A model generated the notes under the pieces. The model saw only the letters and a program-made list of their open reading frames with translations. It did no database searches and had not been told where the DNA came from. 64,000 nt of DNA from a virus. How positions within the stretch are numbered: position 1 is the first letter of the stretch; every line of letters begins with the position of its first letter. The stretch spans positions 8,369 to 72,368 of the IMG/VR virus record IMGVR_UViG_3300025138_009100, one strand, 5' to 3'. Positions 21,601 to 43,893 of the stretch are shown piece by piece. The position numbers and the translations under genes are program-made.

Positions 21601-22367
21601 AATTCAACCTCTATAAATCTTTTAGTCTTTGGTGGAAACTTTTCTTCAATGCTTTTTAATGTACTTACAATATTAGATATTAGGTTCTCCTTCTTTTTCA
21701 AACTGGCATTTGCTATTGCCTTGACTCTTATTATAGCGAATCCACGGCTTAAAATTCTACCGCTTTTCTGTAAATCCGCTTTTATTTGTTTCTGTAGCTT
21801 CTCCTCTCCCCAGATAGGAAGGAAGTGTGAAGGTCCATCCACTTCTATTATAGTCTTGAGAGAAGGAATGTAAAGGTCTATTTCTAGTTTTTCATTAGGA
21901 ATTAAATTCTTATTATGAAAATCTACTGTATATCCGTTTGTGCTTAACTTGTCTGCTACAAACTTCTCTAGCTTAGACCCTTCCCTTCCAGCTTTTCTGA
22001 TGGCATCAGTTGCTAATTTACACATTTTATCTCTTTGTGCAGCATCCATGTTTTTCCATCTTTCTTTAGCTTGGTCTACACGACCCTGCCGTTCTTCCTT
22101 TGTCATTGACTCCCAATGATTTTCCATTCCTTCACTAATTTTCAGCTTTTCATCCTCTGTTCTTTTTTTTCCCGCAGTAGGATGTTCACATCTTCCGCTC
22201 TGTAAAGCATTCTTCTGCGCCTCGCTCTTATTCTTTAGCTTGTATCCATTCTTAATCAAAGTCCTTCTTACTTTATTTGGATATGTATCCAGAGACTTAG
22301 CTATTTCATAAGTGCTTTTACTTTCTTCATTGTACATCTCTATAATTTGTTTGTCAAGATTGCTCAT
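21597..22367 (-). CDS. Vsr/DUF559-like (EDxHD-type) endonuclease with HTH and NUMOD3-like DNA-binding region
   Basis: N-terminal HTH (STYEIAKSLDTYPNKVRRTL), KRTEDEKLKISEG, C-terminal IDLYIP..IIEVDGPSHF. Confidence 0.65.
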   Translation of the reverse strand: MSNLDKQIIEMYNEESKSTYEIAKSLDTYPNKVRRTLIKNGYKLKNKSEAQKNALQSGRCEHPTAGKKRTEDEKLKISEGMENHWESMTKEERQGRVDQAKERWKNMDAAQRDKMCKLATDAIRKAGREGSKLEKFVADKLSTNGYTVDFHNKNLIPNEKLEIDLYIPSLKTIIEVDGPSHFLPIWGEEKLQKQIKADLQKSGRILSRGFAIIRVKAIANASLKKKENLISNIVSTLKSIEEKFPPKTKRFIEVEL

Positions 22368-22797
22368 CGAAAACCTCTCTTATTTTTTCTAGGTCCATAG
22401 ATTCTACCAGTTTTGGCTCTTTACCAGTTATTCTTTTAATGTAGTCATAGTCTTCCTTATTTTTTACAATAAAAGGAAGTGTATTATAGATCTGGATAAT
22501 TTGCATAATGTTTTTTTCTTGCTGTTTTGTGTACAAGAAAACCGCTTTGAATTTATTAATTACATTATGGATTGAAGACGCTGCATTATAGCTTGTTATA
22601 ATTAAATTACCTGTAAACTGCCATATGTCGGTAGAATTGAACAGTCCGAATTTAGGGGTTATAGAGTTAAATCCTATATCCTCATAAAATAAGCTTCCAT
22701 TATCAATATCTTTGCTGTCAATCCATTTATTCAAGCACTCGTATATTTCCTGAGCGCTAGGGTCGGCTGATGAATTTACATAAAATCCTAAGTTCAT
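22354..22797 (-). CDS. Hypothetical protein, possibly a degenerate GT-B N-terminal-like domain
   Basis: Intact ORF at the end of the glycan cluster; Rossmann-like start MNLGFYV; no catalytic motif seen. Confidence 0.35.
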   Translation of the reverse strand: MNLGFYVNSSADPSAQEIYECLNKWIDSKDIDNGSLFYEDIGFNSITPKFGLFNSTDIWQFTGNLIITSYNAASSIHNVINKFKAVFLYTKQQEKNIMQIIQIYNTLPFIVKNKEDYDYIKRITGKEPKLVESMDLEKIREVFDEQS

Positions 22798-23735
22798 TAT
22801 TGTATCTCCCAGTTATTATCGTTCATAAACCAGTCAATGGTTTGTTTTAGTCCTGTTTTTAAATCTGTTTTCGCTTCAAAGTCTAGCAGTTGTTTAGCCT
22901 TTGTCGTGTCTAAACAACGTCGGGGTTGACCGTCTGGTTTACTGTCATCATACTTGATAAATCCAGTATAACCCATTTGATCGGATATCTCAGTTACTAA
23001 CTCCTTGATTGTTATTTCTTTTCCTGTACCTATGTTTATTGGTTGGAGTCCCGGTTCTGTCTCTATCGCTCTGGCAATCGCCTCTACGCAGTCTGGCGCA
23101 TATAAAAATTCCCTAGAAGCTTTTCCTGATCCCCACGCCGTTACCATTTTCTCCCCATTTTTAATAGCATTATAGAATTTAAGAATCAAAGCAGGAATAA
23201 CATGACTACTAGTTGTGTTAAAGTGATCGTGTGGTCCGTACATGTTGACCGGAATCAAGTTAGCACCCCTCATGCCATACTGCTCTCCATACGCTTGCAG
23301 AAGCCGCACAAGGGTCTTCTTGGCGATCCCGTATGGAGCATTGGTTTCTTCTGGGTATCCATCCCACAAGCTTTCCTCTAAGAAAGGGACAGGAGTGTGT
23401 TTAGGGTAGGCGCATACCGTTCCAAGTAGAATGAATTTAGGGGTCTTCTCTATCCTAGCTCTTTCTATAAGGTTTACTCCCATAATAAGATTTTCATACA
23501 TAAACTTGCCGGGATTTTCTTTGTTAGCACCAATCCCACCCACAGATCCAGCCGCATGTACTATTACATCTGGATTGTGATATTGCATCATCTTTCGGCA
23601 GGCATGTTGACACCGAAGATCATAGACGCTAGAACCCATCACGCTTAATGAGTAGTCTTGATTCATAAATTGACCAAGGTTTTCTTGAATGTTTTTCCCA
23701 AGAAACCCCGTACCGCCAGTTATTAATATTCTCAT
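22797..23735 (-). CDS. fcl: GDP-L-fucose synthase (GDP-4-keto-6-deoxymannose epimerase/reductase)
   Basis: ILITGGTGFLG, HAAGSVGGIGAN, LGTVCAYPK, EETNAPYGIAKK, PVNMYGPHD, SHVIPALI, SREFLY, KPDGQPRR. Confidence 0.92.
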   Translation of the reverse strand: MRILITGGTGFLGKNIQENLGQFMNQDYSLSVMGSSVYDLRCQHACRKMMQYHNPDVIVHAAGSVGGIGANKENPGKFMYENLIMGVNLIERARIEKTPKFILLGTVCAYPKHTPVPFLEESLWDGYPEETNAPYGIAKKTLVRLLQAYGEQYGMRGANLIPVNMYGPHDHFNTTSSHVIPALILKFYNAIKNGEKMVTAWGSGKASREFLYAPDCVEAIARAIETEPGLQPINIGTGKEITIKELVTEISDQMGYTGFIKYDDSKPDGQPRRCLDTTKAKQLLDFEAKTDLKTGLKQTIDWFMNDNNWEIQ

Positions 23736-23755
23736 GTATAGTTCTCCTTACTCCT

Positions 23756-23785
23756 ATTATAGTTTAGGAAATACATTTTTGTCAA
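23756..23785 (-). promoter_or_regulatory. Sigma70-type promoter TTGACA-N18-TATAAT upstream of fcl
   Basis: Perfect consensus hexamers on the - strand followed by an AGGAG RBS and ATG 23735. Confidence 0.8.
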
Positions 23786-23800
23786 GTAAAATAAATAAAT

Positions 23801-24592
23801 TTACCAATAACATCCACCCTCTACATAATTCTTCATGGGTGGAATTTCATGAGGTAATGGCCTAATCCAGTCGCCTGTGCCATACCAATCATGGTGTTTA
23901 AATCCTTCGTCCCATCTTCTTCCTCTTATTCCGTAAAGTATTTGGTTGCCACCCCCAAGATGAACACATGGTTTACCTAGTTTTTTTATGTAATCACAAA
24001 CAATTAAAGAAAATCCACCACAACCCACGGTGGCGAAATCAAAATCAGTTTTTTCTATCTGCTCAAGCATTTGGTTGAGTTTATCTTCCCAAGGTTTTGG
24101 CGGTTTGCCAGTAAGCGCTTCTGAGTAAGGAGACTCAACAGTAATCACTTCGCCTATCTCTGCTCCATCCCATATTTTACTGAATTTTTTTGCTTGAGTT
24201 TGAACTGTATCTGGAAAAGGAGAGACGCACAAAACCTTTTTATTTTTTAGATGGTAGTGCCATCCCTCGCGCCCAAAGACAAAAGGTTCTATTCCTTCAA
24301 AAGAATGAAATATCTCTCCAGTGTATCCTATATTAGATAGTACAGCTTCGTCTTCTTTACACCACTGTAGCACGCAGTCTAGATTTTTTACTGCTTCTAA
24401 GTATTCAAAACACCACTTATTAAATGTCTCTAGTGAATCAACATAGATTCCAGCATTAATAAACAACTGCTGTCCAATTAATGAAGGTTGATTGTTTAAG
24501 TGTGTCAGTAAATGTGAAGCTTCTATATTTCCCATTTTACCAAAAGATTTACTAGTTTTATTTTTTAGGCATTCTATAATTAAGTTATTCAT
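23801..24592 (-). CDS. Putative glycosyltransferase (GT-D/DUF1792-like fold)
   Basis: KKVLCVSPF, DFDFATVGCGGFS, KPCVHLGGGNQILYGIRGRRWD, a pattern typical of polysaccharide-locus proteins. Confidence 0.5.
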   Translation of the reverse strand: MNNLIIECLKNKTSKSFGKMGNIEASHLLTHLNNQPSLIGQQLFINAGIYVDSLETFNKWCFEYLEAVKNLDCVLQWCKEDEAVLSNIGYTGEIFHSFEGIEPFVFGREGWHYHLKNKKVLCVSPFPDTVQTQAKKFSKIWDGAEIGEVITVESPYSEALTGKPPKPWEDKLNQMLEQIEKTDFDFATVGCGGFSLIVCDYIKKLGKPCVHLGGGNQILYGIRGRRWDEGFKHHDWYGTGDWIRPLPHEIPPMKNYVEGGCYW

Positions 24593-24965
24593 TTATAATC
24601 CTTAAAAATTGTTGGTAATCTTTTATATAGTCTTTTTCGTCATATTCCATAGAACATAAAACCAATAAAATATCTTTACCTGTTAAATAAGTTTGTTCTC
24701 CCCATACCATGTTTTTCATAAGTAAAGACTGTCCGGGCTGCATTATTTCTTTTTTTGTTTCTTTCCCGTCGTCTAATGAAACTAAAATTTTTCCACTTAC
24801 ACAAATTAAAAGCTGCTTATCTTTTAAGTGTGCGTGATTACCTCTAGTTTCTCCTTTTGGAACGTCTGACACAAAGAACATTCTTTGTGCAACTAAATCA
24901 ATATTTTTATTGATCGCAAAAAGAGTTCCTCCAGAGCTTTGAAATTTATCTAAATCTTTTAACAC
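24585..24965 (-). CDS. dTDP-4-keto-6-deoxyglucose 3,4-ketoisomerase (FdtA/QdtA/WxcM-like cupin)
   Basis: RGNHAH, QLLICVSG, LLVLCSMEYDEKDYIKDY. Confidence 0.85.
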   Translation of the reverse strand: MLKDLDKFQSSGGTLFAINKNIDLVAQRMFFVSDVPKGETRGNHAHLKDKQLLICVSGKILVSLDDGKETKKEIMQPGQSLLMKNMVWGEQTYLTGKDILLVLCSMEYDEKDYIKDYQQFLRIINE

Positions 24966-25863
24966 AGGATATTACCCTTTCTACATCTTCTTGAGTAAGT
25001 TGTTCGTGGAATGGCAAGCTTACTGTTTGCCTAGATTCTTTTTCTGAATTTGGTAAAGTTTCTAATATTATCTGTCTATGTGCGTATGCAACTTTTCCAT
25101 GACAGTGTTCATAATGAATTCCGCATTGAATATCATCTTCTTTCATTCTATATAAAAATCTAGTGTTAGATTTAACACGTATTCTATATAGATGCCTACT
25201 TGTATTATTATAGCCAAACGCATCATTATATGCAAGTTTTATTTCATCTAATTTGTTATTTTTTTTATCTAAATTTTTAAGATTTTCATTTGCTACATAC
25301 GCTTGCACTGATGTCCAGTGCATTTTGTAACCTGCGAGCCATTGCTTTCTTTTCCAGCTATTTTTATCAAAAGTTGTACCGTTCATGGTCATCATTCTAA
25401 AGTCTTCTATTTTCTTCTCATTGTTTGATACTATGATGCCTCCGTCACAACCGCTGACAGGTTTTGTTGGATAAAAGCTAAATATCATGAGCGCATCATC
25501 ATCTTTTAGCTCTGCATACTGATTTTTACTAACTTGCTGCGCTGAATCATAAATGTCATCGTGCAAGTGATAGTAGCTCCCAACCCATTCCACGTCGTCG
25601 TAAAATTCTATTTTATGACCTGCGTTAACAATAGCGTTAGGAACAACGATTGGCATTGTGCTTGGAATTTTTACTATTTGATTTTGATATCTTTTTAGCG
25701 CTAATAATATTAAGCTAGAAGCGCTATTTGCTGTGCAGGCGTATCTTGCGCCAACGTAATTGGCAAAGTTTTGCTCAAATTCTTGTACAATATCACCGTG
25801 AAGAAGGTTGCCAAGCTTAGATGTATCTATATTGTGATTCGGTATATTAAAAAGTTGAATCAT
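24946..25863 (-). CDS. DegT/DnrJ/EryC1/StrS PLP-dependent sugar aminotransferase
   Basis: EFEQNFANYVG, YDSAQ, FSFYPTKPVSGCDGG (PLP lysine), VSLPFH. Confidence 0.85.
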   Translation of the reverse strand: MIQLFNIPNHNIDTSKLGNLLHGDIVQEFEQNFANYVGARYACTANSASSLILLALKRYQNQIVKIPSTMPIVVPNAIVNAGHKIEFYDDVEWVGSYYHLHDDIYDSAQQVSKNQYAELKDDDALMIFSFYPTKPVSGCDGGIIVSNNEKKIEDFRMMTMNGTTFDKNSWKRKQWLAGYKMHWTSVQAYVANENLKNLDKKNNKLDEIKLAYNDAFGYNNTSRHLYRIRVKSNTRFLYRMKEDDIQCGIHYEHCHGKVAYAHRQIILETLPNSEKESRQTVSLPFHEQLTQEDVERVISCVKRFR

Positions 25864-26461
25864 TTTTTCTTTCTAATAAGAATGTTTTTTTACTGTCTAA
25901 TCCTTCAAAAGAATTACAAATATGAATCATATCAAATCCGCTTTTTTCTATTGCCTTGTGCAGATCTTGTTCTAAGATTACACAATTTGTTGCTATCAGA
26001 GATGACTCATATGGAGTATATTTCTCAAGGCGACTTTCTTCTCCAACGTCTTGTCTATGTATTATTACATATTTTTTTGAATGATATAATATTTTACTTA
26101 ATATATCAATCGGATTTTTCATTTCGCTAATAAAAGCATTAATTAAAATTACATCATAATCACCTAAAAATTTTAAATCGTCTTTAAACATATCAAATTT
26201 TACATAATTAAAGTTTGGTCTTTGCGCTAAAGCAACTTTTTCTATTATGTGAGGAAGGTCTGCGCCAGTATAATCTATATGTTTATAGATGTCACCGAAC
26301 TCAGCGTTGCCGCATCCCATATCAATTAATTTTTTTGAGTCTTGTATTTTTTCTACACAGCTATGCAAACTATTAAAATGATCGCTATGCATTATGTGTG
26401 GAAAGTTTCTATTGAGTATTAAGTCGCAAATTTTTTCGTCTTGCCACGCTGTCTTTTCCAT
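25847..26461 (-). CDS. Class I SAM-dependent methyltransferase
   Basis: LIDMGCGNA, YTGADL. Confidence 0.7.
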   Translation of the reverse strand: MEKTAWQDEKICDLILNRNFPHIMHSDHFNSLHSCVEKIQDSKKLIDMGCGNAEFGDIYKHIDYTGADLPHIIEKVALAQRPNFNYVKFDMFKDDLKFLGDYDVILINAFISEMKNPIDILSKILYHSKKYVIIHRQDVGEESRLEKYTPYESSLIATNCVILEQDLHKAIEKSGFDMIHICNSFEGLDSKKTFLLERKNDSTF

Positions 26462-26465
26462 GATT

Positions 26466-27107
26466 TTAGTTCCCGTTTGTTTTTATAAAATGTTCTGGTA
26501 CAGGTTTTTTAAAGGGTGTAAGCGCTTTTCGTTTAGCAAAGCAACATATGAGAGAGTCATTAGGTATACTGCTAATAAAGTCTCCAGAGTCTTGTTGAAA
26601 GTCTAAATTTGCGCTCCTAAGATATGTATTATTTGCGTCAAACTGCCTCCATCCTCCCCCTCTTGGTTTAGTTGCTGTAAATTCTATATTAAATCCATTA
26701 ACATTGTAAAAATCCTTAAATAGCGATGGACTTAAAGAGTAAAATCCACGACCAAAAAAACCACAAAGGTTGCTGGTGTGCATCACGCAGCCACTTTCTT
26801 TTAGCATAAAAAGTATATTTCTAAAAACAGTACACGGATCAAAACAACAGTATAGCGTTCCAGAGTCTATCACCCAGTCATATTTTTTTTCAAGCTGCTT
26901 GCTTACAGGTTCGTTTAGATCAATTTTGTAAGTAGGACTTCCGTTTATATCGAATGTGTCCAAGGTGGCAAACCCCATACTATCTTTAAAAGAGTCTAAG
27001 GAATGACCATAAATATGACAATCCCCTAATATTGCACAGCTTTCCCCTTCTGGGTTTTGTTGTCTTATTGTCTTCAAAAGATGAAAATCTTCTGGTTCAA
27101 TAGCCAT
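26466..27107 (-). CDS. Putative SAM-dependent methyltransferase
   Basis: TFDING..IDLNEP...YDWVIDSGTLYCCFD..FRNI..MLKESG pattern of sugar/capsule-locus MTases. Confidence 0.55.
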   Translation of the reverse strand: MAIEPEDFHLLKTIRQQNPEGESCAILGDCHIYGHSLDSFKDSMGFATLDTFDINGSPTYKIDLNEPVSKQLEKKYDWVIDSGTLYCCFDPCTVFRNILFMLKESGCVMHTSNLCGFFGRGFYSLSPSLFKDFYNVNGFNIEFTATKPRGGGWRQFDANNTYLRSANLDFQQDSGDFISSIPNDSLICCFAKRKALTPFKKPVPEHFIKTNGN

Positions 27108-27915
27108 TATAGTGCCTCTCTATTATTTTTTTAAGTAATTGTATATCCGTTTCTACAACCTTCATCCCTTGTGGCACTTCTTCTGTGATTTTCTCGACAG
27201 AAAAAGAATCGTAATCATCCACCTTATCGTAATTGTGATATTCCATAAAAGCTTTTGATAACTCATGTAAACTTACTTTATAGCATTTTTCTAACCTTAT
27301 ATATTCGCCTTTAGTCTCTAGGTTGTCTAGAATTTTATTGGCTATTTCACAGGTTTCTACAAAGTATCTAGTAGTATCTCTAGCATTAAGTAAAATGGGT
27401 TTATTTTCTGACACCGCCTTATTCCACAAATAAAGAACGCTACCGCTAGAAAAAAGAAAATTTACACCCTGAACCACGGAGTATCCATTTTCAAGCATCA
27501 AGCTCTCCATCAGTAGCTTAGTGCAACCGTAAACACACGAAGGATTTATAGCCTTATCTGTACTTACGGCTATCATATTTTTTACACCAAGCTTTTTGCA
27601 GATGGTAATCAGATTTCTGCTTCCGATAATATTAATATCTATCGCCCTTCCGGGGTTATTTTCGCATATTCCTACATGTTTCATTGCCGCTGTATGAATC
27701 ACATAGTCTATATCATGTTTTTTAAATATGTTTTCTATTTGATCTGAATTTAAAATATCTTGACAGTACATAGGAACGTTTTGAAATTTATTTTTTAGCG
27801 ACTGCGATCTTTCTTCTGAGTGTCCAAGGGCTATTGGTGAATACCCTCTTCTCAAGCATATCTTGACAAGTTCTGCGCCTAATGTGCCGGTAGCTCCTGT
27901 TATAAGTATATTCAT
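27097..27915 (-). CDS. UDP-GlcNAc 4,6-dehydratase family (PseB/CapD-like SDR)
   Basis: ILITGATGTLG, VIHTAAMKHV, VSTDKAINP, YGCTK; start probably MNILITG at 27915. Confidence 0.8.
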   Translation of the reverse strand: MNILITGATGTLGAELVKICLRRGYSPIALGHSEERSQSLKNKFQNVPMYCQDILNSDQIENIFKKHDIDYVIHTAAMKHVGICENNPGRAIDINIIGSRNLITICKKLGVKNMIAVSTDKAINPSCVYGCTKLLMESLMLENGYSVVQGVNFLFSSGSVLYLWNKAVSENKPILLNARDTTRYFVETCEIANKILDNLETKGEYIRLEKCYKVSLHELSKAFMEYHNYDKVDDYDSFSVEKITEEVPQGMKVVETDIQLLKKIIERHYNGY

Positions 27916-28640
27916 CTGTACCACCCCTTACCCGCTGGGGAGTCTAAATTATTATGTATATTTTCAAATATTTCAAATCCTTTATCATCCAAAAAATAAA
28001 GACTTTCTACACAACTATCCCAAGAGGCGTATCCTTCATAATGTTCCTCTAGGTTTATAGATTGATAACATTCTAGCATTTCATTTTTTACATCACAGTC
28101 AACCCTAAATTGAATAAAATGTTTTATTGCCTCATGCTCACAGTCTCCATAGCTGATAACGTGAGTCTTTTCGGATCTTCTCATGTCTATTTGTTTTCCA
28201 ATCATTTTTATTGAAGGAATAGAAAAGGTTGAGAAGAAAGCAAACGGAATGTTTTTAACATTACAAAAACTTCCTACATACTGAAATAACTGTGAATGTT
28301 GCGCATGTTGGTGTTCATCTCCATAGTAGGAATGAGTAACTACTAAATCTAAATCCTCTAGCCCCATTTCAGAAATACCTTCTTCAATAGACTCTGCTAG
28401 ATTTGTTAGTGCGATGCCTCCGCGATCAGGTATGTTTTCCGCCGCTATAAATCTATTTTTAATTCCTGCTATATCTAGCGCATTTTGAAACTCATTGTTT
28501 CTTTGTGGATGATGTCTACCAGTAACACATATTACATATGGGTCAACTTCATTTCTTTCGCTCAAAAACTTTAACGTACCCCCTATCCAAAGACTTTCAT
28601 CGTCAGGATGAGCAACTACAAATAGTACTTTACTTTTCAT
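27912..28640 (-). CDS. PIG-L/LmbE family N-deacetylase
   Basis: VVAHPDDE and THS..G...HAQH zinc motifs. Confidence 0.85.
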   Translation of the reverse strand: MKSKVLFVVAHPDDESLWIGGTLKFLSERNEVDPYVICVTGRHHPQRNNEFQNALDIAGIKNRFIAAENIPDRGGIALTNLAESIEEGISEMGLEDLDLVVTHSYYGDEHQHAQHSQLFQYVGSFCNVKNIPFAFFSTFSIPSIKMIGKQIDMRRSEKTHVISYGDCEHEAIKHFIQFRVDCDVKNEMLECYQSINLEEHYEGYASWDSCVESLYFLDDKGFEIFENIHNNLDSPAGKGWYR

Positions 28641-35519: not shown

Positions 35520-36160
35520 TTTCTTACCTTTAAATAGAGTCCATCGCCCCAAGTCCCACCGTCCTGCTGCCAGTACGTAGCGATTCTTTGAAAGTCTCTT
35601 TCAAATAAGTATTGGTCCATGTCCTCAACTAAAACACAGTTTTCGTACATTTCTTCTTTGTTTATCTCTGTTAATATCAAATCTACATGCTTTAGTGTTT
35701 CTTCTGCGCCTTTAAAAACCTCTAGCTCGTAGCCCTGAACGTCTATATTTATAAAATTATATTTTTCTCTGTCAAATTCTTCGTCGTCTAGTTTTGCTAT
35801 TTTAACGGTTTCTGTTTTGTCGAATTTGATCTGTGGGTACTGCTCAAGATGATATTTTGGTTTTAGCACAGAAGATGACAATCCTCTATCCTCCAAGTGC
35901 ATTTCGACGGTTCCATTTTTATTACCAAGCGCTATATTCCTAGCGTCTACAAGAAAGTCTGTTCCTATGGTTTTTTTTAGTTTTTCAAAATTGTCGGGCA
36001 ACGCCTCGTAAAAAAGAAGGTTATCTATGCCGAAGTGCTTGTAAAGCGGGTATTCTTGACCTTCATGCGCTCCAATATGTATACAGCCTTCTATTATTAA
36101 ATCTATACCTTGGTTTTTCATGTGACCCATCAAGCTGGGTAGCTGTTGTAATATTTCCAC
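35516..36160 (-). CDS. FkbM-family methyltransferase
   Basis: IHIGAHEGQE, YEAL, INIDVQGYELEVFKG, WGDGLY. Confidence 0.88.
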   Translation of the reverse strand: MEILQQLPSLMGHMKNQGIDLIIEGCIHIGAHEGQEYPLYKHFGIDNLLFYEALPDNFEKLKKTIGTDFLVDARNIALGNKNGTVEMHLEDRGLSSSVLKPKYHLEQYPQIKFDKTETVKIAKLDDEEFDREKYNFINIDVQGYELEVFKGAEETLKHVDLILTEINKEEMYENCVLVEDMDQYLFERDFQRIATYWQQDGGTWGDGLYLKVRK

Positions 36161-36168: not shown

Positions 36169-36870
36169 CTAATCGCTTGTTATTCTTTGTTTTGGGAATC
36201 CTAATTCTTTTCTTTTATTGAAAACCATCTGATCTCTACCGGAATAATATAAAGTTTTTTGAGTAGCATTGTCGTGCTGAAGGCTTTCCATAAGGCTATA
36301 ATGCTCATGCGTAATAATCACCTTATCAATATACTTCTCTTTACTCAACCTCTTTACCTCTTGTGTAAATTCATCATCACAATATAAACTCTTGTAGTCG
36401 GGGTGATACACGTAACCAAAATGCTCATATAATTTTCGACCCAGAATAGAAAAAGTAATAAGCTTCCCCTCAGTGTTCCCATCGTTGAAATGAACACACC
36501 CGTCTAGGTCTGGGAAATGTTCCTTCATGGCGATAGCGATTTCGTTGTCCCAACTGTGAGCCTTTGGTATCATGTCGTCAGAGGCGCAAATCACGATATC
36601 AAAGTCTCTACCTTCAATGTGGTCGTTGATAGCACTGATCTTATCTGTGTCTTTATCAAAGTTTACAATACCTCTTATCCAAGATTTACGCATCAAAAGT
36701 TTAGTTATTTGGTTCTGCACATGAGAGTCTGTCATCGTCAAATCATCCGAGTCACAATTAATATTAAAAAATATCTCATGCTTCTCTCCACAGGTATCAA
36801 TATACTGCTTTAGTACGTCAAGGAACTTTTGTGGTCTACTGTATGTGGGGAATTGTATTAATAACTTCAT
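36169..36870 (-). CDS. GT-A (GT2-like) glycosyltransferase
   Basis: FPTYSRP, KISAIN, ICASDDMIP, YKSLYCDDEFT, ITHEH. Confidence 0.7.
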   Translation of the reverse strand: MKLLIQFPTYSRPQKFLDVLKQYIDTCGEKHEIFFNINCDSDDLTMTDSHVQNQITKLLMRKSWIRGIVNFDKDTDKISAINDHIEGRDFDIVICASDDMIPKAHSWDNEIAIAMKEHFPDLDGCVHFNDGNTEGKLITFSILGRKLYEHFGYVYHPDYKSLYCDDEFTQEVKRLSKEKYIDKVIITHEHYSLMESLQHDNATQKTLYYSGRDQMVFNKRKELGFPKQRITSD

Positions 36871-37742
36871 AATTGTTTTACCGATTCTAGTAGTGTTTTT
36901 GAAACCTCTTCTTCTCCTAGCTCTAGTGCTAGCTTCGCCGCCCTGTTAAAACAACTGTGATGTTTTTTTATCTGCTGTTTTATATTATCTATATTTGGTG
37001 TGTCTTCTTCTTCGTAAAACAGTGTTGCTAAAACTTGATTGAAAAGTTCTTTCTGTTCTTCTGGAACTCTTACTGTCAATTTCTTTGCTTTTACAAACCC
37101 GTCAAAGAATACTTGAGAACATGTAAAGTTTACATCGCCTACAACAACAACTTCTTCGTATTTTTCGTACAGTGAGTCCATATTAAGGACGTTAGCCTGT
37201 AAGTCAAAATTAAGATCTGGGTTATCTGCCATTATGATTTTGTGATATGTTTTATACATAGAACACGCTTCTGTGAATTTATCGCAAACCTTGTTGGAGA
37301 CGACTGCTGCTTCTATATTATAGTCTGGAGTAGGTGTTGCTATAGCAAAAATATCGTAACAAGGCAAAAGATTTACAATCTTTTTATCTGTTTTAAGATT
37401 TGATAAAAATTTATAATCTTGTGATACAAAAAAGGGACAATCTATATCCTGATTCTTAACCATTGCTTCTAGATTATTTAATATATTCTGATCTATACCA
37501 GTAATATCTACGACGAGTTTAACCTGTTTGTTCTGGGAGATATATGCAATTAAATCTTGATGCATAGTTTGAAAGCTTGTCAGTACTAAGTCTGGTTTTT
37601 CTGAGTCTAGCTTGTCGTATACACTGGTGGGTTCATTTAAATTCCAAAGCTTAGAATCTAAACCTACCCTAGAAAGGCATTCGTTTAAATACATAGGCTG
37701 ACTAGAACATGAGTTTGAGTAATTCTGAATTAATAGTTTCAT
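36867..37742 (-). CDS. Degenerate GT-B/CgeB-like protein
   Basis: EKPDLVL at the N-terminus and IKKHHSCFNRAAKL at the C-terminus resemble CgeB/GT-B proteins; no EX7E or FE motif. Confidence 0.4.
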   Translation of the reverse strand: MKLLIQNYSNSCSSQPMYLNECLSRVGLDSKLWNLNEPTSVYDKLDSEKPDLVLTSFQTMHQDLIAYISQNKQVKLVVDITGIDQNILNNLEAMVKNQDIDCPFFVSQDYKFLSNLKTDKKIVNLLPCYDIFAIATPTPDYNIEAAVVSNKVCDKFTEACSMYKTYHKIIMADNPDLNFDLQANVLNMDSLYEKYEEVVVVGDVNFTCSQVFFDGFVKAKKLTVRVPEEQKELFNQVLATLFYEEEDTPNIDNIKQQIKKHHSCFNRAAKLALELGEEEVSKTLLESVKQL

Positions 37743-38482
37743 TTTTTAATTCTCTTTAGGGTTTTTATATCGTTTAGTTTCGTTACTTTTTGTTTTCCAA
37801 CATCTGTTACTGAGACGGTATCGTTTTTCAAAAGTTCGTTAATCGCTTCAAACATAAATTTATTTTTAAAGTCTGGATCAGATACTATCGAGTAAAACCG
37901 ATCAACTACATCTTGTCCGTTTAAGTATAAAGTCTCTGTCCAAAAGTCTGTTTTTTCACCCAAACAAAAAGACTGTAGCTTTTTATTGTTTACAATTGCT
38001 GAGACAAAAAATTCTGATTTAAAATTTTCTTGCTGTACGTTTATGGAGGTTCTTTTATAATTAATAGCAGCGAGGTACGAGGGTGTTAAAAGTATGTTTC
38101 CTGAGCATATTAAAATTTTTGTATTCATCGTATTATTCAGGCATAGTCTCGCGCTTTCACAACAGTTTGAATTGTAATGTAGTTGATTTTCTACAATTCT
38201 TATATTCTCTTTCTTAAAATTAGCTTTTACGTATTCCGTTGTTTTCTGCGCATCAAAACCAGAACATAGTATTATTTCGTACTTTGGAAACACTGCCTTT
38301 ATTGCATCTATTTGCTTGTGTAGCAGTGTCTTGGTGTCTACTTTTATTAAGGGTATAGGTCCGTAGGACTTCATTCTGTGACCATGATTCTCTCCAAGTA
38401 AAATCACTGTTACAGAATCTTTTATATTATTTTCTTTGTATTCAGATTCTTTAGCTGATACAATGTATTTATCATTTCTCAT
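37739..38482 (-). CDS. Nucleotidyltransferase-fold (LicC/MobA-like) protein with degenerate active site
   Basis: VILLGENHGHRMKSYGPIPLIKV, ILCSGF, VENQLHYNSNCCES, ICSGNIL (N where GD is expected). Confidence 0.6.
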   Translation of the reverse strand: MRNDKYIVSAKESEYKENNIKDSVTVILLGENHGHRMKSYGPIPLIKVDTKTLLHKQIDAIKAVFPKYEIILCSGFDAQKTTEYVKANFKKENIRIVENQLHYNSNCCESARLCLNNTMNTKILICSGNILLTPSYLAAINYKRTSINVQQENFKSEFFVSAIVNNKKLQSFCLGEKTDFWTETLYLNGQDVVDRFYSIVSDPDFKNKFMFEAINELLKNDTVSVTDVGKQKVTKLNDIKTLKRIKK

Positions 38483-39080
38483 TTAATCTCAAATAATTAC
38501 TAGAGTCCGATTGATCAATCAAATATTGAGACATTTTATCATAGCTATTAAAGTATAAATAATTTTTTGAAACCATCCTACGGGGAATAGCCGTTACATC
38601 TCCTTGGCTAATAATCAAATCAATATTCTTTGACGCTTCATCAACTTCGTAGGAGCGATTTCCAGTTTTAGATATTCTAGGTTTATGATAACTATCACAC
38701 ACTCTATTAAAAAAATCTGGTTGAATTTTTTCGTCGTGGTTCATTTTTACCAAATAATTTGCATGAGAGCAAATTGAAAAGGCGTTATGATCTACGTCCT
38801 GTTCCTTTTCTAACTGATGATTCATAAGTAATCTAGTGTGTTTAAATTTTTCCAGTAAAACATTAGCATGGTGTACATAATTATTTAAGCTTTTTTCTGC
38901 TGATAGATATGAACATAAGATTATTTTTAATTTATCAGCAGGGTAGTTTATTTTTAATATAGACCCAATTGCTTGCTCTATTTGTGACTTCTCTTTAGAA
39001 TCAAATAAAACCAATCCAAACAATAACTTTTTATTGGACTGCGGCTCGTCTTTCTGCTGTGACTTCATAAACGACTCCAT
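38472..39080 (-). CDS. Degenerate GT2-like protein
   Basis: IEQAIGSILKINYPADKLKIIL is typical of a GT2 N-terminus; DxD position reads KMNHDE. Confidence 0.45.
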   Translation of the reverse strand: MESFMKSQQKDEPQSNKKLLFGLVLFDSKEKSQIEQAIGSILKINYPADKLKIILCSYLSAEKSLNNYVHHANVLLEKFKHTRLLMNHQLEKEQDVDHNAFSICSHANYLVKMNHDEKIQPDFFNRVCDSYHKPRISKTGNRSYEVDEASKNIDLIISQGDVTAIPRRMVSKNYLYFNSYDKMSQYLIDQSDSSNYLRLNEK

Positions 39081-39459
39081 TTATAGTGGAAGATTTGATA
39101 AAAAGATTTAAAGATCTAAGTAAGTCTTTTACTGACCCTATAGTAGATAGTGATAGGTTTTTACCAATTAATAAAGATGCATCTTCTTCTTTAATGATTC
39201 CGTTAATAACATTTTTGAAAAAACATCTTAACTCAACGCCAGATACCACAATAGAACCACCGGATCTTAGCTTACTGCAAATTTTAACCAATGATTCTTG
39301 CGAACTTGAAGTAGAGTCCAAAGTATTCTTGCTTATAATTAATTCGCACGAATTATTTGGTATATGGTCTAAGTTTAAACTTGAGTTTTGCTGGTTAACG
39401 ATAACTGTTTCAAATCCATCAATTTTTTGTGACTCGTCTTCTATTATTTGTAGTTTCAT
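39031..39459 (-). CDS. Degenerate methyltransferase-fold protein
   Basis: IPNNSCELIISKNTLD..LVKICSKLRSGGSIVV and C-terminal YEVTAER resemble Methyltransf_11-type proteins; no GxG SAM motif. Confidence 0.4.
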   Translation of the reverse strand: MKLQIIEDESQKIDGFETVIVNQQNSSLNLDHIPNNSCELIISKNTLDSTSSSQESLVKICSKLRSGGSIVVSGVELRCFFKNVINGIIKEEDASLLIGKNLSLSTIGSVKDLLRSLNLFIKSSTINGVVYEVTAERRAAVQ

Positions 39460-40442
39460 TTTTTCATCCTATATGCGAGGTCAAATGTTTCATTCCAATT
39501 ATTTATAAATGACTGCTCAGAAAATTTTTCTAGTATTGTTTCTCTGGCGCAGCTTCCTAGTTTTTTAGCAAGTTTGGAGTCTTCTAGCAACTGTTGAGTA
39601 TATTCTCTTAGTTCATCTTCATCGTTTGAAATAAAGCCGTTAACACCATTCTCAATGATTTCTGGGATCATACAAGTTGCGGTACTAACAATCGCACAGC
39701 CGCATGACATGGCTTCTAAGAGAGATGTAGGAACAGGACTAATAGTAGACGTATTTAGAAAGACAGACGCTTGCTGATACTCTGAGGCCAGTTCATGTAT
39801 ATCTTTTGCTGGCTCTGACAATCCGGGAGTATTACCCACAAGTCTTACCGGCAACTCGTTTGTAACTCTTTGCCAACCAGAATAGTTACAGCAGTAGTCT
39901 CTGTTTGCAAAATCATTAACAACACTAAGAACTTTTCCGTTTTTCTTTACGTCCGATGAAGTAAAAAGCTCTGTGTCAACTGAGTGGTGAATTACTTTGT
40001 TGTCACAATTTATATTCCACTCATTAACAGAATATTCCGAGATAAAAACATTAATATCTCCTCTCATCTGCCTAAACGCCTCTGTTTGTTGTTCAGGCCA
40101 ACTAGGAATGGGCAGTGTGTGTTCTAGAGAAAGGACTGGTAAACCAAGGGTTTGATTTATTCTTTGAGCCATTTGAAATTGACCAAACTTGCTATGAGAA
40201 AGTATGAAGTCAAAGTCAATACTTGTCATTATGGAATTTTTGGGCATACTATAGTAATTTTCTGGTCTTTCTGAATAGGTTGTATCCCATTCTTTTCCTC
40301 CTTCGTAATTAAACGCAAAGAAGTTATGACCAGTTTTAGCTTGCTGAAACTGGTATCGTTCGTGTGTGTCAAAAGTTAGTATATTGTATTTATCTTTCTT
40401 TTGTGTAGCGGTGCTTATTATAGACGCTGTTTGACTACTCAT
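39456..40442 (-). CDS. GT4-like glycosyltransferase
   Basis: HSVDTELF, VFLNTSTISPVPTSLLEAMSCGCAIVST, IENGVNG. Confidence 0.85.
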   Translation of the reverse strand: MSSQTASIISTATQKKDKYNILTFDTHERYQFQQAKTGHNFFAFNYEGGKEWDTTYSERPENYYSMPKNSIMTSIDFDFILSHSKFGQFQMAQRINQTLGLPVLSLEHTLPIPSWPEQQTEAFRQMRGDINVFISEYSVNEWNINCDNKVIHHSVDTELFTSSDVKKNGKVLSVVNDFANRDYCCNYSGWQRVTNELPVRLVGNTPGLSEPAKDIHELASEYQQASVFLNTSTISPVPTSLLEAMSCGCAIVSTATCMIPEIIENGVNGFISNDEDELREYTQQLLEDSKLAKKLGSCARETILEKFSEQSFINNWNETFDLAYRMKK

Positions 40443-41571
40443 TTATAATCTCCTTCATGCATTTTCCAATGTTCTCGTAAGAGTAGTTCTCTGCTCTTTT
40501 TAGTCCTGCTGCTTGATTTCTACTTTTATACATTATGGGATTATTTTTCCACGACTCAAAATACTTTCTCATTTGCTCTCGTATGTTTCTTTCACAGGGT
40601 TGGAACCAGTACTCTCTACCTGTAAATATATCTGGAAAGGCAGCGTCTGAGCATTTGCATACAGAAAAAACACCCCTAGCTAGGTGTCCTGTTCTCCAGC
40701 TAGACTTGTCGATAAATTCCTTTGGTCCACCAAAGTCGCTACAGATCGGGGTATTCCCAAAGCACATTGCGTCAAACGATGGTATTGACCAAGCTTCTCC
40801 GTGGCTTGGGCAGATAAAACAATCCATATGTTTATGAATTGCGAATATATCTTCGTCAGAAACTTCGTCAGAAATAATTACAAGCTTCTTATACTCAGTA
40901 ATATTGTCGTGCATTCTTAAAGAAGTCTTTACTTTTGAAGCTATAGCATCTACAAGTTTTGATGTCTGTTCTGGAGAATGTCCAAACTTTTTAACTTTTA
41001 AAATTAGATTTGCTTGCTCTGACTTGTCAAACTCACTGTAAAAACAAGTTATTATAGACTCTATGTTTTTTCTATCGTTTACGTCTCCGATATAATAAAA
41101 CTTAAAAGAATTCTCTGTATCTGGAATGCTAATATCTCTATACTGTTTCTTATATTTTTCCATTTTACATGTGTGCGGGACCACTTTTACAGATTCTATC
41201 CCCCCATCAACTAGGGTTTGTCGTGAGTCAATATTAGCAACCCAAACTTGATCAACCTGTTTAAGATGTTCCACCCAAGGTAAATGTTTAATACTTAAAG
41301 TTTCTGTTTCCATGAAGGCGATATTCTTCTTAAAACTATCAGACCCGACCAAGTGATGAGGTAGAACGTGTTGAATACAAATATCGCAATCTTCTGTAGT
41401 CTTTTTTTCTATCTCTAACAACCTTGGATCTATATTTTGCTTATCCTGCGTCAGTGTGACGTTTCTGCAAACAACATCTACACCAACCTTGTCGAGCGCT
41501 AAGATATTGTCCGTGGCAGCTTGCGCCCAGCCACCAAATTCTTTGTAGTGTCCTATGTATAGTACTTTCAT
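40435..41571 (-). CDS. GT4-like glycosyltransferase
   Basis: RKNIE, DCFICPSHGEAWSIPSFDAMCFG; start MKVLYIG at 41571. Confidence 0.85.
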   Translation of the reverse strand: MKVLYIGHYKEFGGWAQAATDNILALDKVGVDVVCRNVTLTQDKQNIDPRLLEIEKKTTEDCDICIQHVLPHHLVGSDSFKKNIAFMETETLSIKHLPWVEHLKQVDQVWVANIDSRQTLVDGGIESVKVVPHTCKMEKYKKQYRDISIPDTENSFKFYYIGDVNDRKNIESIITCFYSEFDKSEQANLILKVKKFGHSPEQTSKLVDAIASKVKTSLRMHDNITEYKKLVIISDEVSDEDIFAIHKHMDCFICPSHGEAWSIPSFDAMCFGNTPICSDFGGPKEFIDKSSWRTGHLARGVFSVCKCSDAAFPDIFTGREYWFQPCERNIREQMRKYFESWKNNPIMYKSRNQAAGLKRAENYSYENIGKCMKEIINE

Positions 41572-42206
41572 ATATTCATTGTCTCCAAGCAATTAGCATA
41601 CTCTTTGTAGATATGCTTATGTTTATCAAATGTTTCCTCATCCACAAACCAATCTTCTACAGGTCCGTATTCATTTAGGCATACATTAGCCCATAATAAT
41701 TTATATCCGTAGTCTGATAAGACCTTTCTGTAGTAAGTGTGTTCTTTTAATATATTCTTCTTATGTTCTTCTGATCCATCCTGAGTGCATTCCGGTAAAG
41801 ACTGGAACAGATTATGCTCTAATGTCAATACTTTGAATTTATATCTGTCAAAATCAAAATCGTTAAACACTTTTAATTGTGCGTCATCTACGTCTATAGA
41901 CAGATAATCAATTTCTTCTGGGCAATTGTAATCATCTAATACTTCATTTATATTTTTTTCTAGAAGGTCTACACACACGCAATCTGCTAATCTTAATTGA
42001 CTAGTTCTTGACCACCAATTAGTATCATAGTCAATAGCTATACCTTTCCAGTTTTTAAATGTCTCAAAATAATAGGTATTGCTATAAAAACCCGGAGTGT
42101 GGGTGGGGAGACCACCCGTTCCTGCGCCTATGTCAACAAAAAACCCTTCTGTTTTATTAACAATTTTGTCCACAAATATATCTTGACAAGCTTGCGCATT
42201 ATACAT
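41568..42206 (-). CDS. FkbM-like methyltransferase
   Basis: AQACQD, GFFVDIGAG, SNTYYFE...WKGIAID, IDYLSIDVD, LTLEHN, EDWFV. Confidence 0.8.
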   Translation of the reverse strand: MYNAQACQDIFVDKIVNKTEGFFVDIGAGTGGLPTHTPGFYSNTYYFETFKNWKGIAIDYDTNWWSRTSQLRLADCVCVDLLEKNINEVLDDYNCPEEIDYLSIDVDDAQLKVFNDFDFDRYKFKVLTLEHNLFQSLPECTQDGSEEHKKNILKEHTYYRKVLSDYGYKLLWANVCLNEYGPVEDWFVDEETFDKHKHIYKEYANCLETMNI

Positions 42207-43893
42207 TAGCCACCTGTTGACTCTGAGATAGCTGTTGTATCTTTTGCACTCTAGCTTGCTCCCAATGATTTCTTAAATCACACTGCATCTTCATTTGATC
42301 GTAAGCAACGTTAAAATTAAAGGGAGTTCTGTGGTTCTGGCCGTCGAAAGCGGCGGAAGACTCATTAAAATACATACCTCCAGTAGAAGAGGTACTTTGA
42401 TTGTAAATTAAGTCTCTTGTCATTCTAGATTCAAAGAAAGTATTTAGCTTACTTTGATCTCCTAATACGTTTGTTATTAGCCATTTTGAGAGATGGGAAT
42501 GATTTTCATTTCCTTTTATCTCAATTTTTTGAGCAGATTGATGTAGCTTTGGTTGAGATGCCCAACCCTTCTCGTAAGAAACTGGCTCTGTTTCATCAAA
42601 ATATTTTTCCCAAACAGAACCGCTCAGATGCCACTGGTAATATTCTTCAAACTGTTCTCTTGTATGTTCACCCTTGATATATCTCCATTCGTCTGATTTG
42701 CTGAAAAAATTCAAGAAATAGTTAGCAGCTTCTTGATTGTCTGGGACTGCGCGTAAACATCCAGTTTCTAACTCTTTATATAAAGCCGCTGGCTTGATGG
42801 GGTATCCGCCTAACTTCCTTAAAACACTTTCCATAGCAGAATAATCTGTTCCGCAGACGGGAACCCCACAAGCCGCAGCTTCTACTTGAGGTAGTCCAAA
42901 ACCCTCAGAGTTTGCATATTGAGTATATAGGTCAAAACAATTCATAACCTTTGCTAATTCTTCATAGCTTAATCCGTTCTTTACATTAGACAGCGTAGAA
43001 CCCCATTTGTCAGTATATGGAGACTGAGCTATAGCACCTTTAAAGGTTGATACGAATGATTTTTTTGTTTCTGGGCAGATATATGTAAACAACACGTTAG
43101 AAGCTAGTTCGTGTTGATGTAATAATTCTGGAATATCCCATCCCAAATCTGGATAAGATGTATGACAGTAGAGATAATATTTTTTATTCTCTGACTTATC
43201 TAAGAATAACTTGAACGCTTCAAACAAGTCCGGGTAAAGCTTACGTCTTTGGTTTCGCATGACCGTTCCGATAACTTTATACTCTGGGTCAATACCCATA
43301 GAAAGTTTATGCGCATCTTTATCTTCTACAGGTTTGTAGGCAGGATGAGCAGAAGGGGGCGAGCTACCTAAATAGTTAATTTTACCTCCAGATTGATCTT
43401 CTAAAACACCTCCAGCCCAATCAGAGTATGTTAAACACGCATCTGCGTTAGCGTAAGTGGCAATCCACTGTCTAGCTTGCGGTCTCGCATCTACTGTTGG
43501 CATTATAACCCATTTAAAGTAAGGTCTAAATGGTGAGCGTTCCGCAAAGTCTAACATCCAGAAGTCACGAATATCACAAACAAAATCTGGTAAGAAATCT
43601 AAACACACATGCTCAAAAGCCCATCCACCAAACTGATTTGTTGGGTTTGAGTTATAGGTATTGATTTCTTCTTCGGAAGATTTTGGTTCGCACTCTGTGT
43701 TAGGAGCTACTCCGTAGTATTTCCAAGGAATATTTGCTGCTCTAGGGTCATTCTTTTGACCGTAGGATGCCATCTCAGCAATTTCATACTTGCCAGTGCT
43801 GTGCAAATAGTTTAGGATTTCTCTAGTATAGGTTGCATACCCCGTGTTTAGAAAGGTAGCTTCGCTGCAAAACAAAATTCTTTTCTTTCTCAT
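42199..43893 (-). CDS. Large GT4-like glycosyltransferase
   Basis: TGYATYTRE, VMRNQRRKLYPDL, GWDI, ANSEGFGLPQVEAAACGVP. Confidence 0.88.
   Translation of the reverse strand: MRKKRILFCSEATFLNTGYATYTREILNYLHSTGKYEIAEMASYGQKNDPRAANIPWKYYGVAPNTECEPKSSEEEINTYNSNPTNQFGGWAFEHVCLDFLPDFVCDIRDFWMLDFAERSPFRPYFKWVIMPTVDARPQARQWIATYANADACLTYSDWAGGVLEDQSGGKINYLGSSPPSAHPAYKPVEDKDAHKLSMGIDPEYKVIGTVMRNQRRKLYPDLFEAFKLFLDKSENKKYYLYCHTSYPDLGWDIPELLHQHELASNVLFTYICPETKKSFVSTFKGAIAQSPYTDKWGSTLSNVKNGLSYEELAKVMNCFDLYTQYANSEGFGLPQVEAAACGVPVCGTDYSAMESVLRKLGGYPIKPAALYKELETGCLRAVPDNQEAANYFLNFFSKSDEWRYIKGEHTREQFEEYYQWHLSGSVWEKYFDETEPVSYEKGWASQPKLHQSAQKIEIKGNENHSHLSKWLITNVLGDQSKLNTFFESRMTRDLIYNQSTSSTGGMYFNESSAAFDGQNHRTPFNFNVAYDQMKMQCDLRNHWEQARVQKIQQLSQSQQVANV

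Follow-up and report, generated by a model that had tools for sequence, protein, structure and literature searches.

What does a tailed phage glycosylate with a 21.5-kb block of sugar genes that lies beside its replication genes? The question is raised by a 64,000-nucleotide stretch of DNA (hereafter the window), which comprises bases 8369-72368 of the 72,368-base virus record IMGVR_UViG_3300025138_009100 (G000; CheckV completeness 43%). Positions 22354-43893 of the window contain 28 open reading frames (ORFs), all on the - strand, with ends overlapping or nearly abutting; a preliminary description had counted about 27 co-oriented genes there. The G+C content of the block is 0.32-0.36 versus 0.37-0.42 in the flanks, and about 13% of the phage genome is given to it. 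Taken as a whole, the evidence is best explained by a glycan built on virion proteins, an answer in which we place about even confidence; virion proteins are ranked first because the core of the cluster is universal in the lineage and a target of inteins, a family 2 glycosyltransferase (GT2) gene is fixed in the virion module, and the centre of the cluster varies like a surface antigen.

The cluster encodes about nine glycosyltransferases; five of the 28 ORFs pass Pfam cut-offs, one is recognised by PHROG, one by its fold, and two are leads. The preliminary description had given roughly nine, and this number is reached, with seven supported by Pfam, PHROG or fold, and the ORFs at 36867-37742 and 23801-24592 standing as leads. 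It had also listed four methyltransferase-like genes, two of the FkbM type, where four to five methyltransferases, including two FkbM enzymes, can now be listed; the named enzymes (RmlB, PseB-like dehydratase, FdtA, DegT, Fcl, NeuA/NeuB, HAD phosphatase and PIG-L) were all seen by Pfam or NCBIfam, the 2-oxoglutarate dioxygenase weakly. The ORFs starting at 22354, 26466, 34635, 38472 and 39031 have no family above cut-off in Pfam, NCBIfam or PHROG.

RmlB, FdtA and an aminotransferase together yield dTDP-3-amino-3,6-dideoxyhexose, GMD and Fcl yield GDP-L-fucose, and NeuB with a cytidylyltransferase yields CMP-nonulosonate. Judged by enzyme families, three sugar-nucleotide branches appear to be encoded, tentatively those of a dTDP-3-amino-6-deoxyhexose, GDP-fucose and a CMP-nonulosonic acid; the sugar identities are tentative because most equivalog-level NCBIfam cut-offs are not reached. 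The first branch would lead to dTDP-3-amino-3,6-dideoxyhexose, possibly N-methylated, through RmlB, FdtA, DegT and the adjacent methyltransferase. The second would lead to GDP-L-fucose through Fcl and a GMD gene near the terminase gene, as in the relative G001 (162,690 bases, 98% complete), where a GMD gene lies near TerL and would complete the route with Fcl. In the third, the PseB-like dehydratase, PIG-L, NeuB, HAD phosphatase and cytidylyltransferase would produce a CMP-nonulosonic acid, which the PhyH-type dioxygenase perhaps hydroxylates. The core nonulosonate pair, a NeuB-family condensing enzyme and a CMP-activating enzyme, is present; the NeuB-family ORF scores 191 bits on the NeuB (Neu5Ac) model versus 138 bits on PseI, both below the equivalog cut-offs. 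Of the upstream route, the cluster has a PseB-like dehydratase and a single DegT; NCBIfam identified no equivalog of an N-acetyltransferase, PseG or NeuC among its proteins.

The enzymes are soluble. A Kyte-Doolittle scan (19-residue window, threshold 1.6; a crude method) revealed two marginal hydrophobic segments in the 28 cluster proteins (1.71 and 1.61), both within globular enzyme folds, which agrees with the earlier statement that the cluster encodes no membrane protein. In G001, 22 of the 170 ORFs have any hydrophobic segment, and only the tape measure exceeds two such segments. Pfam searches covered four records: that of the window plus three relatives with a completeness of 93% or more. 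The phosphoglycosyltransferase families PF02397 and PF00953 were found in 0/4 records (positive controls in 10 and 12 of 14 genomes), and so were Wzx (PF01943) and Wzy/ligase (PF04932), ABC-transporter families not having been searched by name; the positive controls for the phosphoglycosyltransferase, Wzx and Wzy families as a group matched in 10 to 13 of 14 genomes. The search of the rest of the genome for wzx and wzy that had been proposed at the outset thus gave a negative answer in all four records, the three near-complete ones included. These results support stepwise assembly by soluble enzymes without a phage-encoded lipid-carrier or export step. The original proposal of a glycan built on a cytoplasmic acceptor, most plausibly the virion proteins, and not on a lipid carrier, holds in respect of the soluble stepwise build; the evidence for the virion acceptor is circumstantial.

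The pattern of conservation in the lineage divides the cluster into a core and a variable centre. With the N-terminal DnaE ORF (46869-48536) as a query, 75 related IMG/VR loci were recovered. Among the loci with room, that is with at least 5.5 kb (GT564), 8 kb (GT385 and GT328) or 9.9 kb (the nucleotidyltransferase-like protein) beyond the DnaE match, GT564 is present in 39/39, GT385 in 33/33, GT328 in 32/33 and the nucleotidyltransferase-like protein in 21/28; without this filter, the three glycosyltransferases are found in 46, 37 and 35 of the 75 loci, respectively. GT564 homologues form at least 3728 clusters at 90% identity in metagenomes, and no tblastn match to GT564 was obtained in 50,697 deposited phage records. 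The relatives G001, G004 and G005 have in common the left flank (three small ORFs at 20513-22367, the 147-aa protein and Fcl) and the right core (the 233-, 291-, 247- and 142-aa proteins, GT328, GT385 and GT564), and a counterpart of the 202-aa protein was detected in G001 and G004 only.

Between these shared flanks, the central 14-16 kb differs among all four genomes. The centre of G004 contains two NeuB paralogues, a cytidylyltransferase, a Pfam-positive GT29 protein, a UDP-sugar dehydrogenase, two DegT proteins, a class-III aminotransferase and an NAD-synthase-like protein; that of G005 contains three GT47/RXYLT1-like proteins and a FUT8/NodZ-like protein; and in that of G001, an HMGL-type aldolase and a cytidylyltransferase are accompanied by a counterpart of the window's GT29-like protein, to which it is 28% identical. 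A 6.4-kb insertion in the window relative to G001 (approximately 26486-32850) corresponds exactly to the nonulosonic-acid module. Since the GT29-like gene stands first in the module in both G000 and G001, and the insertion points in the shared dTDP-sugar block differ, the donor pathway and its cognate transferase move as one cassette. The unusual complexity originally ascribed to the cluster should be qualified: this very abundant lineage normally carries such a cluster, and viral clusters of the neuABC type are already in print.

The core is also a target of inteins. The 922-aa GT564 orthologue of G005 (L097:1368-4136) contains Hint and LAGLIDADG domains; the insertion directly follows the motif DIRDFWM, in which most positions are invariant across an alignment of 30 sequences. 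Intein-type domains occur in 26 of 41 longer GT564 homologues, and in 15 there is fusion to a second transferase domain (named heptosyltransferase by the Joint Genome Institute); one protein has both, and one has the glycosyltransferase domain alone. The Pfam families involved include PF14890 and PF01075. A Rosetta-stone search of the same 41 proteins for fusion to an acceptor-like domain found only inteins and the second transferase domain. The universality of GT564 and its use as an intein target are as expected of a conserved, important phage gene, not of an accessory one. Two inteins appear to be present in some of the homologues, those of about 1300 aa; glycosyltransferases are unusual hosts of inteins.

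The fold of GT564 was compared with solved structures. The best Foldseek match is the chlorovirus NY-2A glycosyltransferase 3oy2 (E 1.6e-15, TM-score 0.75 on the target, 15% identity), and the PDB neighbours include WaaG, PimB', the methylmannose-polysaccharide mannosyltransferase 7qsg, MshA, BshA and sucrose-phosphate synthase; no DNA glycosyltransferase is among the PDB matches listed. A search of BFVD returned generic viral GT4 proteins only, the GT4 of Bacillus phage SP-15 among them. A Zn-ribbon-like Cys pattern in the family consensus was considered and set aside, as it is not retained in the window protein, where C273 alone is invariant.

The ORF at 32172-32852 encodes the putative capping enzyme of the chain. 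It has no match to Pfam PF00777, and a profile search against PDB sequences gave no meaningful match. All ten Foldseek matches in the PDB at E <= 1e-3 are chains of ST8SiaIII or ST6GalNAc2 (TM-score about 0.5), followed by CstII (GT42) at E of about 0.01. The G001 counterpart reaches PF00777 at E 0.0012 (18.8 bits versus the cut-off of 23), and a 234-aa protein of G004 passes at 30.9 bits, its BLASTP match to the window protein being not significant (E 0.033). At the level of the modelled structure, a GT29-like sialyltransferase fold is confirmed; the adjacency of the NeuB and cytidylyltransferase genes suggests CMP-nonulosonate as the donor.

Sugar genes are found in the virion module as well. 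The gene of a 362-aa GT2 follows closely on the capsid gene and is flanked by fibre-like genes; its place is the same in 3/3 near-complete genomes, and the proteins are 46-49% identical. In G001, it lies in the middle of a block (22547-36836) between head and neck genes, which also encodes a 1320-aa protein, an 898-aa protein with RCC1 repeats and a dockerin domain, a 1411-aa tail-fibre-like protein and three paralogues of about 230 aa; the large proteins of this block may be head fibres or decorations. Elsewhere, G001 has another GT4 gene, an epimerase gene and a cytidylyltransferase-like gene.

In the mechanism that these data suggest, soluble enzymes would make at least three activated sugars in the cytoplasm, virus-autonomously, and about nine soluble glycosyltransferases with four to five methyltransferases would assemble a methylated hetero-oligosaccharide straight on its soluble acceptor, most likely one or more proteins of the phage particle. 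As to the order of action, the lineage-wide core (GT564, the two GT4 enzymes and four smaller proteins) would lay down a common inner glycan, the swappable central cassette would add strain-specific outer sugars, the FkbM-type enzymes would O-methylate the chain, and the GT29-like transferase would cap it here with a nonulosonic acid. The fullest form of this proposal, in which every member of the lineage has to cover the head fibres, capsid or giant tail proteins of its particle with a complex methylated glycan, lineage-wide in its inner part and a strain-specific "serotype" in its outer part, here with a sialic-acid-like cap added by a GT29-type enzyme, is held with somewhat less than even confidence.

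Several points weigh against a virion acceptor. The cluster belongs to the replication-side transcription unit, directly after SSB and outside the virion operon and late genes; the case for the acceptor is drawn from gene context, and sugar on protein is a prediction; and the structural proteins of G001 have no distinctive Ser/Thr-rich tails. The fold neighbours of GT564 are generic GT4 enzymes with nearly equal scores, some of which act on small molecules and lipids, the donor-pathway enzymes mostly fall short of NCBIfam equivalog cut-offs, and the window's own record is just 43% complete. Host lipid carriers and exporters could serve the phage enzymes, and the phage seems to send some enzymes to the host envelope, because it encodes DUF1501 proteins with twin-arginine signals.

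Remodelling of the host envelope is an explanation that we regard as less likely. In it, the enzymes feed the host's lipid-linked pathways for lipopolysaccharide (LPS), capsule or S-layer glycan via the host's priming enzyme, flippase and ligase, and the surface of the infected cell is altered, for example so that superinfection is blocked or progeny do not adhere to debris. Clusters of the neuA/B/C type from uncultured viruses of lakes have been interpreted in this way in print (bioRxiv 10.1101/655167); many structural neighbours of GT4 type (WaaG, PimB') use lipid-linked or LPS acceptors, PHROGs places the matching glycosyltransferase families in the category "moron, auxiliary metabolic gene and host takeover", and the exported DUF1501 proteins are adjoined in G001 by an RXYLT1-like glycosyltransferase. 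The universality of the core transferases (39/39, 33/33 and 32/33) and their inteins are, however, unlike accessory host-modifying genes, the priming transferase, flippase, polymerase and ligase families are absent from all four records searched, a GT2 is embedded in the virion module, and the scanned parts of G001 gave neither an integrase nor a lysogeny module, the scan not being exhaustive. If the host envelope were the target, this would be a lytic phage that spends about 13% of its genome on reshaping the surface of its host.

That a glycan on the bases of the phage genome shields it from host nucleases, in the manner of T-even phages and of C5-MT/5mYOX/GT clusters, is quite improbable. 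The position of the core glycosyltransferases directly after SSB and DNA polymerase in every related locus, with deoxynucleoside monophosphate (dNMP) kinase, dUTPase and ribonucleotide reductase (RNR) genes nearby, would fit it, as would the Kdo- and heptose-bearing phage DNA glycans made with cytidylyltransferase and HAD enzymes that are described in passages of bioRxiv 10.1101/2023.12.21.572611 and the appearance of the SP-15 enzyme among the viral fold neighbours of GT564. Against this, ThyA-like PF00303, Tet_JBP PF12851 and TGT/DpdA were found in 0/4 records, C5 DNA methyltransferase PF00145 is present in G004 and G005 only and absent from the closest relative, the 98% complete G001, and G001 encodes ThyX and dCMP deaminase, which indicate an ordinary dTMP supply; the listed PDB neighbours of GT564 include no DNA glycosyltransferase, and nine transferases with several methyltransferases exceed the mono- and disaccharide examples in the passages of the same preprint. 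Were DNA the target, its glycosylation would proceed without any known hydroxymethylation route. A free cytoplasmic product that alters host physiology during infection, be it a small molecule with sugars attached or a soluble, methylated oligo- or polysaccharide (compare the mycobacterial polymethylated polysaccharides), likewise has a small probability: soluble GT4 enzymes and several methyltransferases without carrier or export genes are in keeping with it, and 7qsg, MshA, BshA and sucrose-phosphate synthase are among the closest solved folds of GT564, but strain-level swapping of cassettes fits a selected, exposed surface better than an internal metabolite, and the virion-module GT2 and a capping enzyme of the sialyltransferase type are typical of glycoconjugates.

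Sequence comparisons indicate that the contig is a fragment of an approximately 160-kb siphovirus-like phage, uncultured, very widespread and marine. The whole of G000 is collinear with G001 57761-128625, with a nucleotide identity of 65-82%. Because of this collinearity, and because the tape-measure gene of G001 directly precedes the giant ORF, G000 can be regarded as phage DNA that is not chimeric; a bacterial or chimeric contig had been named in advance as the finding that would overturn the proposal, and no chimerism relative to G001 is seen. The + strand block of G001 encodes a head protease, TerL, head and tail-fibre proteins and a 2464-aa tape measure, which stops just where the giant ORF starts, and a 335-aa ORF matches the solved major capsid protein 6wkk (E 5e-6). 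The nearest isolates are distant: TerL is 27% identical to that of Bacillus siphoviruses, and the DnaE ORF about 30% to that of Cellulophaga phages. The last 100 bases of G001 recur at position 364 and the last 200 do not, a short repeat with no clean terminal overlap.

On the + strand of the window (1-19639), giant ORFs encode proteins of 4956 aa (654-15524 of the whole record) and then 600, 276, 1811 and 1490 aa. Their sole Pfam match is to FG-GAP repeats in the 4956-aa ORF; none has a PHROG match, and the 1490- and 1811-aa proteins have no tblastn match in the phage collection. Synteny with G001 suggests that they are the post-tape-measure members of a siphovirus-type tail module and have a virion role; the 4956-aa ORF and its followers would be extraordinarily large tail-tip or fibre proteins. 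The position of the cluster between replication and virion genes, as first described, is thus seen directly on the replication side, and on the virion side through the collinear G001, the window itself giving no virion family match.

Past the cluster, the - strand encodes SSB, a split DnaE, primase, DnaB, UvsX, PhoH, dUTPase and RNR, with a dNMP kinase gene also near the cluster; no tRNA gene was found in the window. An exonuclease gene lies between the DnaE halves in 64 of the 75 related loci, and an HNH gene in just one other. Amid the replication genes, a PAP2-family protein (50677-51348, - strand) without a hydrophobic segment or signal peptide is encoded next to a DUF1501 (sulfatase-like) protein (51650-52879, - strand) with the twin-arginine signal MKRRDFVKLGAT; at the corresponding place, G001 has two DUF1501 genes and the gene of an RXYLT1-like glycosyltransferase. 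Two suggestions of a host were rejected. A DUF1501 scan of genome contigs yielded one 7.4-kb contig with 88% identity in a Promethearchaeota metagenome-assembled genome, and one GT564 homologue lies on a contig labelled Verrucomicrobiales; both are probably mis-binned phage DNA and at best weak hints of the host.

Promoter calls are matches to a sigma-70-like consensus only, and terminator calls are hairpin stems followed by T runs; the promoter matches fall in the few intergenic gaps (Table 1). The match at 44247..44275 is likely to mark the start of an operon that comprises SSB and the glycan genes, as judged by its position.

Table 1. Predicted genes and transcription signals of the glycan cluster and its surroundings, in order of decreasing window position (pLDDT, predicted local distance difference test; SAM, S-adenosylmethionine; 2OG, 2-oxoglutarate).
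Feature	Position	Strand	Evidence or remark
Sigma-70-like promoter match (11-12/12)	48596-48568	-	before DnaE N-terminal ORF
DnaE N-terminal PHP/NTPase ORF	46869-48536	-	
DnaQ-like exonuclease gene between DnaE halves	46205-46882	-	
HNH endonuclease gene between DnaE halves	45828-46208	-	
DnaE C-terminal finger/OB ORF	44276-45838	-	
Sigma-70-like promoter match, 11/12	44247..44275	-	gap before SSB
SSB, directly upstream of first glycosyltransferase	43895..44215	-	Pfam E 4e-8; order kept in relatives
GT564, GT4/GT-B glycosyltransferase, extra C-terminal helical domain (~435-564)	42199..43893	-	Pfam; model pLDDT 86
FkbM-type methyltransferase	41568..42206	-	Pfam PF05050 E 1.6e-7
GT385, core GT4 glycosyltransferase	40435..41592	-	Pfam; 33/33 loci
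GT328, core GT4 glycosyltransferase	39456..40442	-	Pfam E 1e-16; 32/33 loci
Small conserved protein, weak methyltransferase-like match	39031..39459	-	Pfam E 0.0018, below cut-off; orthologues in G001, G004, G005
Conserved protein without family match	38472..39080	-	orthologues in G001, G004
Nucleotidyltransferase-like, weak GlmU N-terminal match; candidate sugar-1-phosphate nucleotidyltransferase	37739..38482	-	NCBIfam E 1e-5, far below cut-off; 21/28 loci
Core protein, CgeB/Glyco_trans_1_2-like (lead)	36867..37742	-	Atlas features 0.95, 184 shared; orthologues in G001, G004, G005
Core GT-A-like glycosyltransferase	36169..36870	-	phrog_14945 E 3e-15; Atlas 0.99 to viral glycosyltransferase clusters
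FkbM-type methyltransferase	35516..36160	-	Pfam E 3e-20; TIGR01444 above cut-off
Protein without family match	34635..35552	-	74% identical G001 orthologue
RmlB-like dTDP-glucose 4,6-dehydratase	33739..34638	-	TIGR01181 E 7e-95, 318 bits vs cut-off 365
GT2 glycosyltransferase	32862..33746	-	Pfam PF00535 30.0 bits vs cut-off 23.3
GT29-like sialyltransferase-fold protein, first gene of nonulosonic-acid cassette	32172..32852	-	model pLDDT 88 and Foldseek
PhyH-type Fe/2OG dioxygenase (weak)	31426..32175	-	Pfam E 3e-4, 21.6 bits vs cut-off 22
CMP-sugar cytidylyltransferase, NeuA/PseF-like	30809..31429	-	Pfam CTP_transf_3 E 1e-14; PseF E 2e-15
NeuB-family nonulosonic acid synthase, without C-terminal SAF domain	30001..30816	-	Pfam NeuB E 1e-59
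Small HAD phosphatase, 98 aa	29708..30004	-	TIGR01689 E 8e-9; phrog_1238 E 5e-31
GT-B protein, borderline GT1	28651..29706	-	Pfam 27.2 bits vs cut-off 27; phrog_2170 E 8e-10
PIG-L family de-N-acetylase	27912..28640	-	Pfam E 1e-10
PseB/CapD-like UDP-HexNAc 4,6-dehydratase	27097..27924	-	Pfam Polysacc_synt_2 E 2e-46; PseB E 1e-31, below cut-off
Protein with faint methyltransferase-like match	26466..27107	-	Pfam E 0.011
SAM-dependent methyltransferase	25847..26461	-	Pfam Methyltransf_23 E 1e-9
DegT/PseC-type sugar aminotransferase, short (305 aa)	24946..25863	-	Pfam E 2e-35; 81% identical 306-aa G001 orthologue
FdtA-type 3,4-ketoisomerase	24585..24965	-	Pfam FdtA E 3e-33
GT-D-like protein (lead only)	23801..24592	-	Pfam E 0.01; G001 orthologue E 0.0013; both below cut-off
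Sigma-70-like promoter match, 12/12	23756..23785	-	gap before Fcl gene
Fcl-like GDP-fucose synthase, conserved left flank	22797..23735	-	NF047922 E 6e-82, 275 bits vs cut-off 500; orthologues in G001, G004, G005
Conserved 147-aa protein, last gene of block, without family match	22354..22797	-	orthologues in G001, G004, G005
Pair of convergent terminator-like hairpins, 11- and 12-pair stems then T runs	20453..20509	.	- strand unit meets + strand virion unit

If the glycan is on the virion, abundant ocean phages would wear a variable sugar coat, which could shape adsorption, the avoidance of decoys, the stability of particles and the way in which grazers or host defences recognise them. Virus-autonomous glycosylation, for which the chemical proof so far comes from giant viruses and a small number of actinophages, would in that case reach large marine tailed phages. 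In the fullest form of the proposal, with the sialic-acid-like cap, the particle would be the first of any bacteriophage to be sialylated, and the coat would be to tailed phages what fibril glycosylation is to giant viruses. No description of nonulosonic acids on phage particles, or of the cluster of this lineage, was found in the literature, in which subscription journals were thinly covered. The core-plus-cassette layout is a natural system for studying the evolution of viral glycan diversity, and the 226-residue GT29-like transferase and the shorter-than-usual NeuB and PseB variants are candidates for glyco-engineering.

Among known systems, bacterial O-antigen and capsule loci share with the cluster the RmlB, FdtA, DegT, Fcl, NeuB and CMP-transferase families, many glycosyltransferases, conserved flanks around a hypervariable centre and low G+C content; in contrast to those loci, no phosphoglycosyltransferase, flippase, polymerase or ligase was found here and no ABC transporter was seen, though the transporter families were not searched by name. 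The capsid protein of chloroviruses is glycosylated by cytoplasmic enzymes that the viruses themselves encode, and the NY-2A enzyme 3oy2 is the best solved match of GT564, yet the identity is 15%, cellular GT4 enzymes score nearly equally, and GT564 has an extra C-terminal domain. The C5-MT/5mYOX/GT clusters need a C5-methyltransferase (C5-MT) and a TET-type dioxygenase, or a thymidylate-synthase-like enzyme, according to passages of bioRxiv 10.1101/2023.12.21.572611. The DNA-glycan clusters of phages treated there and the present one both combine glycosyltransferases with cytidylyltransferase and HAD enzymes, and theirs install sugars that include an ulosonic acid; here, TET-type and ThyA-like enzymes are found in 0/4 records, and the C5-methyltransferase is missing from G001.

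Mycobacteriophage glycosyltransferases modify the phages' own capsid and tail-tube subunits (Freeman et al. 2023, as summarised in PMC12619734). This O-glycosylation of virions is the sole experimentally supported phage precedent found for the proposed acceptor, and the glycosyltransferases are soluble and phage-encoded in both cases. The mycobacteriophage systems reportedly consist of a few glycosyltransferase and methyltransferase genes beside structural genes, without sugar-nucleotide pathways. The present cluster differs in its 21.5-kb length, in its place after SSB in the replication-side unit, in its full donor pathways and in a GT564 that is without a match in the 50,697 phage records.

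The fibril glycosylation clusters of Megavirinae contain 6 to 33 genes with clade-specific content, according to the abstract of PMC10117803. Like these, the 28 genes here, with their core and variable centre, pair nucleotide-sugar pathways for rare bacterial-type sugars with glycosyltransferases, and the resemblance to giant-virus glycosylation drawn in the preliminary description is apt because clade-specific variable clusters occur in both. The homology seen is confined to generic glycosyltransferase and short-chain dehydrogenase/reductase families, and, whereas the Megavirinae are amoeba viruses with glycans chemically shown on their fibrils, the present system belongs to a tailed phage with a presumed bacterial host and is known from its genes. 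New here are the universal core glycosyltransferases with inteins, the swapped centre, the GT29-like enzyme that travels with a CMP-sugar module and the syntenic GT2 of the virion module.

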